From Phoronis australis (Eukaryota; Animalia; Phoronida), in assembly GCA_002633005.1 (NCBI GenBank), contig NMRA01000887.1, forward strand, positions 1 through 64,000: a stretch of DNA of 64,000 nt, written 5' to 3'. A model generated the notes under the pieces. The model saw only the letters and a list, made by a program, of their open reading frames with translations. It was not told the origin of the DNA and did no database searches. The position numbers and the translations under genes are program-made. Each line of letters starts with the position of its first letter. Positions within the stretch are counted from its first letter, which is position 1. Shown here piece by piece: positions 52,594-61,808 of this stretch.

Positions 52594-52706
52594 TTAGCAA
52601 AATCGACAGCTCTTGCGACAATTTCGATTCATGTAGCCTCTTGAGTTTGAACAATAGCCATTTCTCGCCCAGTACTCACAGAACTGGTTGCTGTCAGAAC
52701 AGGAAC
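52594..52706 (-). CDS. Zn-peptidase-ShKT gene, exon 8 (ShKT domain 2 and stop)
   Basis: tgttgtttcag|GT, phase 1. Reads GSCSDSNQFCEYWARNGYCSNSRGYMNRNCRKSCRFC*. Confidence 0.92.
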
Positions 52707-53834
52707 CTGAAACAACAGATTGCAAAGTGTACTGTCAGTGTAAAGATTCGTTAAATAGCCATGCAAATTCACTGTTCTCAACGACAGCTTTCCTTACACT
52801 CGAGCGAAACTGTGAAATGCATGTTCTTTGATTATAACCTAGATACGTTTTCAAGATTTTGACATTGCCTGATCATGAAAATCTGAATTGCCAAACAAAG
52901 TTGGTTCCTTTTTTGTTTTTCAAAATTGGTACTAAGCTTTCAGTTTCAAACATGCGGGCAAAACCATGACTGCGTGTTGCACTTGCTGCAAGAAGTCTTT
53001 GCTTTTGGAACAAAGAGAATGAATGCCATTAGGCCATATTCCATTTGACTGTAGGAAGCCTAGAAAATCACTTCCGGCCACTTTTTGGGGCATGTGAAGT
53101 CGCACACTCATTCAATAATTCATGGTTTCAGCAGTGTCCTTCCTAGCTGGCCCAAAACTGTTGTTTGCGGAAACACAAAATGATTCAGGAACATGCCAAG
53201 AATTGTATGTATGTTAGTATGATAACACTTGCCACTTTACTTGACTTTCCTTAATTCCAATCTACTGCCTGCTGGTTTATGAGCCTTGACCCTTGGTAAT
53301 TACCAATTACTTGCACACCCACCCAAGAATTAATACTTTTCAATGAAGACAGTAGCTTCAAACAAGTTAGCCAAGCCAACAGGATAACATCAGTTGGCTG
53401 TCCTCTGATGAATGCTTTCATGAAGCAGACAACTTGGGAATGGGAAAGATACGGACACAATATTTTCCTGGCATTTGATTGGCTGTTCAGGTCATTTTGC
53501 ACTGACAACTGGTGGCTAACATGTTAGCTTAGGCAAATTTTTCCAACTTTTAAATTAAAGTTATTACTAAACGTTTAGGTGAAAGATAGGAGAGCTGGGA
53601 CTATGGCCTACATTCCAAAATTCATGAATTCTGCACGCATTACATGAGATCTGCAGGTGGCGCTAAACGCTTGTTCACTAAAGACGTGCCTCCCGTTCAG
53701 TAACGCTAGGACCTCCCTAGAAAGCAAGCATTCGCGAGATTACGTGAGTTACTGAACGCACGTCTGATCGCTGTCCGACGCGGTGTTAGTGAATTTCAAT
53801 ATGGCGCTGCTTAATTTCGAAAGTCAGCTGTTAC

Positions 53835-53948
53835 CTTCACACAGCCGGCAACTTTTTTTACAGTTAGTCTCCATATAGGTGGCGCTCTTCTGACATTCAC
53901 CGGTACGTGCCCAATAGGGACAGTTCTCGCTTTCGTCAGTGCAAGAAC
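53835..53948 (-). CDS. Zn-peptidase-ShKT gene, exon 7 (ShKT domain 1)
   Basis: ttactttcag|GT ... GAAG|gtaaca, phase 1-1. Reads GSCTDESENCPYWARTGECQKSATYMETNCKKSCRLCE. Confidence 0.92.
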
Positions 53949-55160
53949 CTGAAAGTAACAAAGAGTCTCCGAACCTTCTAAACGTTAACGTTTGCAGATA
54001 GATAACATTTTTCTCAGAATATAATCTGGACTGTGCGAGTTAGATGAGATCACGCAAGTCTTCGCCAGGTATCGCGGTCATGCATCGCAGGCGAAACGGT
54101 GATTTCACTAGCTTTCACCCGCTAGTGCCTTGCGTAACGTAAAATGGTTAAATATGTAAGAACGGGGAATTGTTCATTCGAAACTTTCTGCTTTGATAAC
54201 ATCACCAGGGCTATGGTTTTGATCGTGCACAGATCTCAATGTACATATCTAACGGATTAAGGTTCTCGAAGTCTCTGTTCAGACAGTCGGAACATATTTG
54301 TGAGATTTAAATGGAGTGCAAACTACACTCAAAGACCGTGACAGGCTATTGCTGGAATGAACGAGAACTCAAATAAAAATAAATTTTGAACGTTTCAGGA
54401 CTCCCAGCCCACTACGGTGTGTCCCGTCCACCATTTCCGGGTTGCACATCACCCAAAAACCCCACACTCTGCATTGCGGATTTGTAAAATTCGGCAACTT
54501 ACCGGCACTGAGTTCAATAGTCTGAATGTTTTCACACGCAATTTCCGTTCCCAAATCAGATGATAAAATCAAGAGTTAGTTTTTACGGAAAGCGGGTTCG
54601 TAGCACGTTTAACTGTAGTGAATAACAGTGAAGGAGTAATTTACCCTGTTCGGGAGCGTGCTGAACCACAAACAATCACGAAATTCGAGTGTTTCATGAA
54701 TATGTTCGAAACCTTAATAGTGTAACGCAAACTGGCAGTCACGGCACGGAAGCGAGTGGTCTATGATGTTAGAAGTTTAAATTAGAAATAGAATTCACCG
54801 TTTCCTTTTCATGACAAACGAAAAGCCACTATTTAAACCTTTGTAATCTCCCCCCTCCCCCTCCCCCCATCCCCCAACGCTACAAAGTTGGTCTAAACTT
54901 GCCCTTACTCAGATGACAAGACAGTCTCGCTGTTTAAGAACTGAGACGTCCTTAATGCTAGAGTTCATGGTCGATGAATAAACTGGTTGTAGAGTGTGGT
55001 CTGAAGCAATAACGAGCTCTCAGTTCTTTCTAGCCGCAGAAATCACGTCTATTTTGGTTAAAAAAATAATTTGATACCAATTCCGTAACGGTCTGTGATC
55101 TAAATTAAAACATGAATTGTGTGATGGAAAGCTGATTTATCAGTAACCACTTTAACTTAC

Positions 55161-55301
55161 CACCTGTTCCGGTTCCTGTCCCGGTGCCTGTTCCGGTTCC
55201 TGTCCCGGTGCCTGTTCCGGTTCCTGTCCCGGTTCCTGTACCAGTTCCTGTCCCTGTCCCTCCTTGGCAGTTCGTTCTAAAACTTGCAGATTCTTCAATC
55301 T
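55161..55301 (-). CDS. Zn-peptidase-ShKT gene, exon 6 ((Gly-Thr)16 linker)
   Basis: ttttttag|AG ... GGTG|gtaagt, phase 1-1. Reads [14 protein letters not shown](GT)16G. Confidence 0.88.
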
Positions 55302-59203: not shown

Positions 59204-59362
59204 CAACGATAGGGATGCCGTACGCCTCAGTATACTTGCGATAGAAATATGTCAATCCACGGGGCTTCATGTGGGCTGCACTTCGCAAGTTGTTAGGAAC
59301 CGCTCTTACGTGATTGCAACTATGCGTGTTTGTGGCGGAGCCTGGACGACGTCGACCATAAT
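59204..59362 (-). CDS. Zn-peptidase-ShKT gene, exon 2
   Basis: tatcttgcag|AT ... GTTG|gtaaga, phase 1-1. Reads YGRRRPGSATNTHSCNHVRAVPNNLRSAAHMKPRGLTYFYRKYTEAYGIPIV. Confidence 0.9.
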
Positions 59363-59619
59363 CTGCAAGATAATAAGTTTCTCTGTCTATCATTTTTCAG
59401 ACTGAAAGCTGCACCGATAATTTTCCAAATGACTAAATCTGCACGGGCACAGATAACGTTTACAACCGAGAGGAAATTGGAGGGTATGAAAAAACTCAGA
59501 CGTGTTCTTGATAATATGTAGAATGCAAACGTTTCCGACATATGAACATAGTTTCAAGAGATTTTTGTTTTGCCTAATTGTAATAAATCCAAAGACGTTA
59601 ACAAGACTATTTACCAAGG

Positions 59620-61435
59620 CCGCCGCCATTATTATGTCATGGACCGTGGCGACACCTAGCGGGTGTGTGTGGGCCGACGAAGTACGCAAGGCATTGACTA
59701 TGGCCGATCTTAGTTTTTCAAATTCAAAATTGTCAGTGAAGTGTCTTTGTTTAAAATATTGAAAACAAAAAAACACGAGCACTGTAATGGAAAATACACA
59801 TAGTCAAAATATAGAGTAAATCAAGAAAAAATTGGGCAGCATAGGTAATATAAACTACGAGAAATACATCATAAGCAAGAGGGATACTCAGTAATAAGAG
59901 CTGAGCAGATGAAAGTAGGTTATTGAAGAATGGGCAGGTACTGAACTTGAATGATTTTGTCTAGGGGGGTCAGGAATGTAATAAACATCAAATGGATCTG
60001 CTGAAGAAGAGATAGGAGCAAAAAAGGGGGTGCTCCTCAACCAAAATGTTGGGGACGGAGATAGCTTTCTTCCCCGAATATTCCAGGTGTTAATATCAAT
60101 TAATTAACAATTAATTATGTAAGCTTTTAACGCACAAACTTTGTTTTAAAATAAAATTGAAAAATCAGTAGACTCTCCTCCACCCAACCATCAAATGTTT
60201 CCTACGCCAATGTTCAAAAACTGCCCTCTTACGCCATCCAAACACGGGTCCAGATCTTTCTTTCGAAAATTCACATCTTAAAGATGTTCTAGATTCAAGC
60301 AGTTGTGTTTGTGCCCATTTACATGAAACTGTCTCAAATATCGACCCAACAGGGTCTATCCGGGATTTTTTAAAGGAGGGGGTCGGATACTGATTTTTTA
60401 AGAAAGGTGGCCCAAGTCAACAATTTGAAAATTCTGGCATTGATATCACTACAATCAAGTAACATGGGGGTCCAGACCCCTTTGATTCCCACCCTGGATC
60501 CGCCTGTACTCAACTGAGTTGGTAAATCTTTTAGGTATTTTTTTTTGTTCTTTGCTCACAGTTTTTTTTTTTCTATCATTTTATCTTTATTATGAGCTCC
60601 TCTTTGGACTTATGACGTTTTATAATAATATAACTAAAAACTGAGCTCTTAATTCAATCAAAACATTTAACAGCATTTCTCCTTAGCTGGTCCTCACATT
60701 TCCTGTTCATCACCTATCTCTTGAATCTGCATGTATAAAGACTGAAGTGAATTGTAGAAATGAAAGGCAAATCACAATTTAGATCCAATCATAGAATAGA
60801 AACACCAGTTATCAGTTGGTCCTAAGTCATGAAACACATGCAGGACAATTTTGGTTATAGTTTGATAGGTGGGTTCCTGACTCAAAATTCATTCTAGAAC
60901 CAGTTACTACCACTGAATAACGGGCGTAATTCATTGGGAGTAACTGGTTCTAAAATCAAGTATCCATCATCAAGGCCATGTATCGGATTACCACAATTTT
61001 GCTTTTGAGTAATCAAATAAATTCTTGAAACTAAAAGGTAAGACAAGTTCAAATCACTCTGCCAACATCAAAGGGTGACTGGCAGCATATTCACAAAAAT
61101 AATTCTTTGTATCACTCGTCGTATATCTCACCTGTTTTTATCAGCGGGGAAGCGAAAGAAGTACAAGTCCCGATTTTTCAACTGACTGTTGCTGCAGCAC
61201 AAAAAGCTCCTCTGATCCTCTTTTTAGGGACTGCAGACGCCATGTCTTGTTTTGAAGTTACATGACGCAGCACTAGTCTCAGAAGCATTAACTATGGGAA
61301 ATCTATGTGAACTACATAATCAGATAAAATACCTTGTCTCTGTGACCACTGACCACGAGTATCAGCCATATTCCTTTTTTCGCACACAAACCCGCTAGAC
61401 GTCTCTACGGTCCATGAAACAACAATGGCCGCCAG
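59620..61435 (-). mobile_element. Decayed THAP-domain (P-element-like) DNA transposon inside a peptidase intron
   Basis: Inverted ends gccattattatgtcatggaccgtggcgacacctagcgggtgtgtgtg and cacacaaacccgctagacgtctctacggtccatgaaacaacaatggc. Internal spliced relic at 61243-61132 plus 60726 onward: MASAVPKKRIRGAFCA/fs/CSNSQLKNRDLYFFRFPADKNR|FKR*VMNRKCEDQL, matching the THAP C-x-C...FFRFP.D..R...W pattern. Confidence 0.7.
60350..60508. mobile_element. Diverged MITE family A-like copy nested in the THAP element
   Basis: cccaa|cagggtctatccgggattt ... ccctggatccgcctgta|ctcaa. Confidence 0.6.
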
Positions 61436-61685
61436 TGGCCGTCCAATAGGATTTCGCTAGGTGAAACGTCTCTCTCTCTACGGTTTCTGATAAATCTAGT
61501 TATAATGATTAACCTCTAGTCATTGATGCTGATATTTTAGCAACAAGTCCGAACATCCTATTCAAGAGGTAATTGTTTTAAACGGCGGTGAATCATCCAC
61601 CTGCCTCGGCCTCTTAAAAAATACATTACAGCCACAATAAAATAATAGAACGTGAGACCTTTAATCTACAATCAACAATACTTAC

Positions 61686-61808
61686 TTGCTGCCACATCCG
61701 GGGTACTGTAAGTTACATAATATTCGGAATCCCCAAGCGGGAGAGGAACAGCGGCTACGTTCTCGCCAACAGGATCTTGCGGTAACTGTGAGGCGACTTG
61801 ATAGGAAG
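61686..61808 (-). CDS. Zn-peptidase-ShKT gene, first identified exon (putative pro-region; start/signal exon not found)
   Basis: ctctctgttctgctttcag|CT ... GCAA|gtaagt, phase 1-1, 123 nt. Reads SYQVASQLPQDPVGENVAAVPLPLGDSEYYVTYSTPDVAA, in frame with exon 2. Confidence 0.75.

Follow-up and report, generated by a model that had tools for sequence, protein, structure and literature searches.

A stretch of 64,000 nucleotides from the phoronid Phoronis australis (contig NMRA01000887.1, positions 1-64,000; hereafter the window) carries on its minus strand, at 52594-61808, a gene that is real, spliced and transcribed and that encodes a putative zinc peptidase followed by two ShKT modules. By predicted fold, its family is an M34-type zincin, a separate family that is neither PPEP nor anthrax lethal factor. 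The family is an old one among invertebrates, and the gene, which is not specific to the species, is an ordinary representative of it. What is new here, and the main functional clue, is the proline- and hydroxyproline-catabolic (Pro/Hyp) gene context of the bacterial relatives, together with their domain fusions. Our favoured reading, in which we place about even confidence, is that the protein is likely a secreted zinc endopeptidase of predicted PPEP-like fold that acts on Pro/Hyp-rich proteins.

An earlier note on this DNA, made from the sequence alone, had proposed an eight-exon model on the minus strand, and its splice sites, phases and codon count are all reproduced: the eight acceptors are AG and the seven donors GT, the intron phases are 1,1,2,0,1,1,1, and the 1271 nt comprise 2 nt and an uninterrupted run of 423 codons, of which the last is the stop. 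Exon 1 (61686..61808) encodes an N-terminal spacer and exon 2 (59204..59362) the start of the peptidase domain with its RPGSAT...FYRKY...GIP blocks; exon 3 (58272..58548) encodes the N-terminal subdomain, whose PEH, RARGLG and EEN blocks are kept family-wide, exon 4 (57652..57817) the helix of the predicted active site together with the putative catalytic Tyr and the third zinc ligand, and exon 5 (56369..56546) the helical C-terminal portion of the domain. Exon 6 (55161..55301) contains the domain end and then a Gly-Thr repeat linker, encoded by a tandem repeat visible in the sequence at 55163-55261, exon 7 (53835..53948) the first ShKT domain, and exon 8 (52594..52706) the second one with the stop codon.

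Three raw RNA runs of the same species (X1, X2 and X3) were mapped onto the region. Reads of X3 confirm introns 1, 3, 4, 5, 6 and 7 as predicted (5, 9, 10, 8, 7 and 16 reads, respectively), with joints at 59362/61686 for intron 1 (plus one read in X2), at 57817/58272 for intron 3 (plus 25 reads in X1 and 18 in X2), at 55301/56369 and 53946/55159 (cut +2) on the two sides of exon 6, and at 52704/53833 (cut +2) for intron 7. Only a divergent copy shows intron 2, as a 655-base skip of the predicted size but offset by 2 bases (29 reads in X1 and 18 in X2), and no joint at its exact predicted position is listed in the X1-X3 mapping, so that six of the seven introns are joined exactly. Between 55240 and 59350, X1 and X2 are dominated by reads of a divergent allele or paralogue whose expression is higher and which carries 3-10 other differences and short indels next to exon boundaries; X3 agrees with the window. 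No second copy of the gene was found within the 64 kb. First mates map to the plus strand only in repeat-free exon bins (for example 57338-58588), which fits minus-strand RNA, provided that the libraries are stranded.

Exon 1 has no Met and opens at a phase-1 splice acceptor; it is hence not the first coding exon, and at least one further exon lies upstream. Because full-length homologues have about 20 extra N-terminal residues with a hydrophobic leader, this exon would encode a signal peptide directing secretion, and we infer the secretion of the window protein from these homologues. In the 2.2 kb upstream within the window (61809-64000), neither an RNA joint nor a convincing phase-1 signal-peptide exon was found; a GTAAGT at 62040 was considered as the donor of the missing exon and rejected, as a stop lies upstream in the needed frame.

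All 422 residues can be assigned, to the spacer, a single peptidase domain (about residues 45-310), the Gly-Thr linker and the two ShKT domains. The predicted zinc motif HEFLH (residues 193-197; 57784..57798) is followed by Tyr232-x6-Glu239 (57658..57681), the predicted catalytic Tyr and third zinc ligand, a pair that the family profile aligns to the lethal factor fragment 2l0r (E 0.19) and that agrees with the numbering of PPEP-2. The predicted catalytic set (H193, E194, H197, Y232 and E239) is intact with respect to that of PPEP-2 (H137, E138, H141, Y174 and E181, according to an excerpt of PMC9147577), with a spacing from the second His to the Glu of 42 residues versus 40 in PPEP-2. The earlier note had recognised in this spacing a site of lethal factor/PPEP type, not of astacins or matrix metalloproteases (MMPs); the aligned zinc-site residues and the models described below bear this out, and by motif the HEFLHGVEILG of exon 4 lacks the metzincin HExxHxxGxxH. 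Both ShK domains, with their six-Cys pattern, exceed the Pfam PF01549 cut-off of 20.9 bits (41.1 bits, E 2.6e-10, and 40.6 bits, E 3.8e-10, respectively). The Lys-Tyr/Phe dyad is the mark of ShK-type potassium-channel blockers such as the ShK toxin, and neither module contains a KY or KF pair.

Structures were modelled for two homologues, and not for the window protein itself: an animal homologue, P0001 (55% identical over the domain, pLDDT 86), and a Bacteroidales homologue from locus L046 (about 37% identical to the window protein, pLDDT 93). Foldseek ranks PPEPs first for both models. The animal model aligns to PPEP-2 with a Z of 12.5 (root-mean-square deviation 3.5, 171 residues aligned), to PPEP-3 with 12.2, to lethal factor with 10.3 and to the MtfA-like structure 3dl1 with 8.2, and the Bacteroidales model to PPEPs with 14.2 (deviation 3.1, 175 aligned) and 14.0, to lethal factor with 11.4 and to 3dl1 with 9.4. 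Identity in these structural alignments is 15-20% to PPEPs and 13% to lethal factor, of which the single-domain model covers residues 560-771 only. Astacins and MMPs are not among the top fold matches, which is no exclusion in itself.

Searched against PDB sequences, the family profile recovers two ShK structures and the weak 2l0r fragment and nothing else, with no PPEP at E<=1. The cut-off of Pfam ATLF (PF07737; 27.4 bits) is passed by none of 14 homologues (best 19.5) and none of the eight exon frames of the window matches this family, while the cut-off of M90 (PF06167; 26.2 bits) is likewise not reached among 14 homologues (best 22, E 1.4e-4). NCBIfam assigns the peptidase domain to a family in none of 57 aligned members, and the matches in the ESM Atlas are bacterial clusters without a name and a single cluster rich in molluscs, in which 17% carry ATLF. 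Among 45 proteins scanned, one two-domain bacterial protein reaches 42.1 bits with ATLF, and one two-domain protein reaches 35.6 bits with M90. The description of the gene as a lethal factor/PPEP-type peptidase thus holds for the zinc site and the predicted fold, with the qualification that the PPEPs are nearer than lethal factor and that the family stays below the ATLF and M90 cut-offs.

Related invertebrate proteins, whose existence the earlier note had guessed, are found across Cnidaria and Bilateria: in the jellyfish and hydrozoans Rhopilema, Clytia and Hydractinia and the coral Porites, in protostomes (molluscs, Owenia, Lineus, a sea spider and a barnacle) and in deuterostomes (all five echinoderm classes, acorn worms, amphioxus and a tunicate). 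Most of them bear ShKT, and their identity to the window protein has a mean of 53% and reaches 61.5%. All named eukaryotes among the best 120-150 matches of each search are cnidarian or bilaterian; sponges, vertebrates, insects, nematodes, plants, fungi and protists are absent from the named matches in these lists. The animal copies form one clade, with a support of 1.0 in FastTree (104 of 394 domains) and of 100/100 in IQ-TREE (30 animal rows among 98 chosen). Introns 2, 4 and 5 have the position and phase of introns in an unrelated animal locus, L113, where intron 3 is off by five codons; the phase-1 intron 2 lies after GIP-x-x, the phase-0 intron 4, after EY-x, is also shared with L114 and (acceptor only) L115, and the phase-1 intron 5, four codons past RC, also with L100. 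Judged from this single clade across Cnidaria and Bilateria and from the shared introns, the gene is older than the cnidarian-bilaterian split and has been inherited vertically since.

Animal members are labelled 'uncharacterized' or 'ShKT domain-containing' in databases. In the full-text literature we found no title or abstract opening describing the family (proteomics tables in supplements may list members) and no mention of six gene identifiers of animal members. The peptidase domain is also fused to F5/8C and ZP domains in animals, and in P0164 it lies N-terminal to a GPS motif and a secretin-family seven-transmembrane region, as an adhesion G-protein-coupled receptor ectodomain or possibly through a gene-model fusion. 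Close locus numbers on one scaffold are observed for P0105/P0108/P0115 (Elysia), P0157/P0297/P0299 (Asterias), the P0158 cluster (Lineus) and the P0211 cluster (Lytechinus), which suggests tandem expansions in grazers and predators. An intron-free 270-residue open reading frame within the animal clade, P0139, was considered as a non-animal member and dropped, as its closest loci are ShKT-bearing and of animal type.

Bacterial relatives, about 40% identical to the window protein, are numerous: the family profile retains 7015 of 7997 scored proteins at E<=1e-10 and 1293 clusters (50% identity) at E 1e-30, and at least 514 of 600 pattern matches in GTDB genomes were confirmed, against none of 15 in viral contigs. 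Blocks that the earlier note had attributed to bacterial proteins as well (FYxKY...GIP, RARGLG and EENILC...DR) are indeed present in them, and most members open with a hydrophobic or lipoprotein-type leader, as judged by eye. Conservation of the cleft blocks and of the catalytic set extends to 91 of 104 animal domains, 123 of 134 domains of the Bacteroidales clade described below and 149 of 156 domains of other bacteria, and speaks for a common chemistry. In some Bacteroidales, two intact peptidase domains stand in tandem, and a second, interrupted copy with a degenerate zinc motif occurs in planctomycete-type proteins (the P0058-P0079 group and P0024-P0026).

Using the best 80 of the at least 514 confirmed GTDB matches, we collected the neighbouring genes within 4 kb on either side, with family labels taken from scanned representatives of each cluster. 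These loci are mostly from Bacteroidota, and also from Planctomycetota, Deinococcota, Alcanivoracaceae, Actinomycetota and others. An M24 Xaa-Pro peptidase lies beside the peptidase gene in 24 of the 80 loci, dipeptidyl peptidase IV (DPP-IV) in 21, a glycyl radical enzyme in 17, its activase in 15, the glycoside hydrolase GH127 in 15, an aldehyde dehydrogenase in 10 and GH27 in 5. Four of five radical enzymes tested exceed the cut-off for trans-4-hydroxy-L-proline dehydratase (HypD) and both aldehyde dehydrogenases tested that for 1-pyrroline-5-carboxylate (P5C) dehydrogenase; the two activases and three M24 proteins tested all have the expected best match, yet lie below the cut-offs. A frequent same-strand order is P5C dehydrogenase, peptidase, M24, HypD and activase. 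If HypD, P5C dehydrogenase, an Xaa-Pro peptidase, DPP-IV or GH127 is counted as a Pro/Hyp-type neighbour, 43 of 51 loci of a single Bacteroidales clade (hereafter the Hyp clade) have at least one, versus 0 of 29 other loci, and a HypD-type neighbour was observed 17 times where about 0.05 would be expected by position.

Four newly drawn Bacteroidales carrier genomes gave five further loci, of which two lack the Pro/Hyp setting and three have it; in one of these three a peptidase-GH97 fusion lies inside a SusC/D-GH43-GH127-DPP-IV locus. A compact locus of this kind, with SusC/D, DUF6055, a GH97-peptidase fusion, GH43, GH127 and DPP-IV, was noted for L089:79-16119 (G128), L083 and L087. DUF5695 and DUF6055 recur in SusC/D glycoprotein loci; neither matches a PDB entry, nor does DUF5695 match HypBA2. 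GH127 removes beta-arabinofuranose, which is found on extensin hydroxyproline and in arabinogalactan proteins (AGPs), according to excerpts of PMC10850190 and PMC6085000, and the latter also describes a prolyl oligopeptidase gene adjoining the Hyp gene set of Xanthomonas. The bacterial loci read as a pathway in which sugars are stripped off Hyp-rich glycoproteins, the backbone is cut, X-Pro peptides are trimmed and Hyp is catabolised.

Outside the Hyp clade, two of 45 scanned proteins have DPP-IV fused to the peptidase, DUF6055 fusions also occur, and 11 of 147 proteins carry a bacterial VHL-beta-like domain fused to the peptidase (P0212, P0251, P0223, P0227 and seven others). For two of these VHL-like domains the alignment is to pVHL itself (E 8e-5 and 2e-4), and four of the eleven keep all five residues aligned to what we take to be the hydroxyproline pocket of pVHL; these four are candidate bacterial hydroxyproline-binding modules.

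As to the origin of the animal branch, the earlier note had raised a bacterial source. A recent or lineage-specific transfer is ruled out, because the family to which the gene belongs already existed when cnidarians and bilaterians parted. A bacterial origin before the cnidarian-bilaterian split is plausible: one ancient transfer would fit a single animal clade set against far more diverse bacteria and the lack of any named non-animal eukaryote among the matches listed, and the tree, being unrooted, names no donor. A distant subfamily was rejected as an outgroup since it aligns over the C-terminal half only (15-40 bits), and the sister relationship between animals and the Hyp clade seen in a first FastTree (0.929) fell away in the more careful tree (25/35).

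We therefore favour, at the strength given above, an enzyme that would work outside the cell, on dietary algal or plant wall glycoproteins or on collagen-type matrix. By analogy with PPEP, His193, His197 and Glu239 would bind zinc, Glu194 would act as the base and Tyr232 would stabilise the intermediate, while the linker and the two ShKT modules might tether the enzyme to its substrate or to mucus. The specificity hinted at by the bacterial context would extend to the animal branch, which may have come from bacteria once, before the cnidarian-bilaterian split; whether the animal enzyme has this Pro/Hyp specificity is, by this analogy, an evenly balanced call. Of the roles that the earlier note had put forward for a secreted effector, digestion and matrix turnover fit the Pro/Hyp context, and defence, like a toxin role, is unsupported here. 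A more inclusive proposal, which we make only tentatively and think less likely to be true than false, is that of an unnamed family of Hyp/Pro-directed zinc endopeptidases, which in bacteria would be the missing backbone cutter upstream of HypD in extensin/AGP and collagen-peptide loci, and in animals a PPEP-like peptidase acquired before the split that gained introns and ShKT, expanded in grazers and filter feeders and was lost in vertebrates, insects and nematodes.

Several observations weigh against this Pro/Hyp reading. A shared predicted fold shows no specificity, as lethal factor combines this fold with different substrates. The species behind the 43 context loci are related to one another (Prevotellaceae account for 8 of the 17 HypD loci), and in 38 loci outside the Hyp clade, where 95 of 120 neighbouring open reading frames were scanned, there was no M24, S9, HypD or GH127 and no common theme. 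An even draw of 151 Bacteroidales genomes contained HypD in 52 and the peptidase in 5, and the peptidase is therefore not required for the Hyp pathway. Seven of the eleven VHL-like domains lack part of the pocket. In IQ-TREE, animals group with the Hyp clade and one other sequence at 25/35, and with the Hyp clade and seven others at 94/93 (unrooted); the grouping of animals with the Hyp clade has a p of 0.217 in the approximately unbiased test, diagnostic columns are divided 6 versus 6 between animals/Hyp clade and animals/other bacteria, and the mean identity of the window protein is 39.9% to other bacteria and 36.7% to the Hyp clade. Finally, the window copy deviates at two near-invariant family columns, outside the zinc ligands.

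Part of this evidence would suit an active secreted zinc peptidase of broad or other specificity, digestive or acting in mucus, for which the Pro/Hyp link is the specialisation of one Bacteroidales clade: the 29 loci and 95 scanned neighbours outside that clade are without Pro/Hyp neighbours, the tree does not place animals as its sister, and the bacterial fusion partners are many and unrelated (sulfatases, PKD and Ig, for example). The DPP-IV, DUF6055 and VHL-like fusions found outside the clade, the cleft residues kept in all three groups and the PPEPs as top fold matches speak against it, and we consider it rather unlikely, if a serious contender. The enzyme could also be a glycopeptidase reading the sugar, arabinosylated Hyp or a mucin-type O-glycan, instead of the imino acid, and trimming mucus or glycoproteins; this would agree with SusC/D loci containing GH127, GH27, GH43 and GH97, with bacterial fusions to lectin-like ricin-B, CBM64 and LamG domains and with the animal F5/8C and ZP fusions. 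It appears doubtful, since HypD, P5C dehydrogenase and Xaa-Pro peptidases, which deal with sugar-free products, are equally frequent neighbours and are also found in sets without glycosidases, and since the Bacteroides zinc peptidase 4l7a matches both models with a Z of only 5.6-5.8.

A venom or defence effector, acting like lethal factor on prey or competitor cells with ShKT modules that deliver or aim it, is suggested by the lethal factor-type zinc site and predicted fold, by the ShK domains and by family members in cnidarians and a nemertean. A toxin role is nevertheless unlikely, because the window protein has no delivery domain and no Lys-Tyr pair in its ShKT modules, and because mussels, abalone, amphioxus, acorn worms, a barnacle and a tunicate, which are not known to be venomous, are among the named carriers; the single-domain model matches lethal factor 560-771 only, the residues of the window protein leave no room for a protective-antigen-binding or further lethal factor-type domain, and we rate this explanation as very improbable. 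Little speaks for a weakly active or non-catalytic binder, an MtfA/M90-like regulator or a diverging paralogue, although the family has weak M90 scores, the window copy has its two departures and the catalytic set is incomplete in 13 of 104 animal domains: all five catalytic positions of the window protein are intact and its gene is spliced and transcribed, so that we give this idea hardly any credence.

Around and within the gene, broken open reading frames resembling a decayed Gypsy-type pol, with RNase H and integrase motifs seen by eye, lie on the plus strand at 50548-52148, a short way downstream of the gene's stop codon, and intronic short interspersed repeats at 53688-53750, 56863-56900, 60412-60606 and 61383-61489 attract hundreds of loose-ended reads on both strands.

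The value of these observations lies in the family, the single window gene not being special. Excerpts of the M34/PPEP literature (PMC8610288 and PMC9147577) deal with bacterial enzymes only, and a predicted fold of this type is now seen in an animal-wide family. If the Pro/Hyp specificity is true, invertebrates would have a means, independent of astacins and MMPs, of digesting the wall glycoproteins of algae and plants or of remodelling collagen. The enzymes freeing Hyp from plant glycoproteins or collagen are called an open challenge by Huang et al. (an excerpt of PMC6219649), for which the bacterial members are testable candidates in Bacteroidota, and the family could supply a useful proline-directed protease.

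Among known systems, PPEP-1, -2 and -3 (MEROPS M34.002 and M34.003; PDB 5a0p, 6fpc and 9g0j) are the best fold match (Z 12.2-14.2) and share with the window protein HExxH with Tyr-x6-Glu and, as we presume for the latter, secretion. By contrast, identity is 15-20% here versus at least 32% inside the PPEP family, which according to excerpts of PMC8610288 is confined to Firmicutes and cleaves the cell's own adhesins; the window family has its own PEH, RARGLG and EEN blocks and ShKT, and it occurs in Bacteroidota, Planctomycetota, Deinococcota, Pseudomonadota and animals. The catalytic domain of anthrax lethal factor (M34.001, PF07737) has the same predicted fold (Z 10.3-11.4) and zinc-site spacing, and differs by an identity of 13%, a match restricted to this domain and a delivery domain that the window protein lacks. 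MtfA/peptidase M90 (PF06167; PDB 3dl1) has a related fold (Z 8.2-9.4) and a weak profile match (E 1e-4). Unlike MtfA, a cytoplasmic regulator-binding protein, the window family lies below the M90 cut-off (22 versus 26.2 bits) and its bacterial members have signal or lipoprotein peptides. The sets degrading extensin and other Hyp-rich glycoproteins (HypBA1/HypBA2/HypAA of Bifidobacterium and Xanthomonas) and the HypD clusters share GH127 and proline-directed peptidases with the loci of the bacterial relatives, whereas their descriptions, in excerpts of PMC6085000 and PMC6219649, give no backbone endopeptidase. Finally, the astacin-ShKT and MMP23-type metalloproteases of animals differ from the window protein by HExxHxxGxxH, in place of which it has a distant Glu as predicted third ligand, and by its other best fold matches, and they share with it the layout of a zinc peptidase, a low-complexity linker and C-terminal ShKT.

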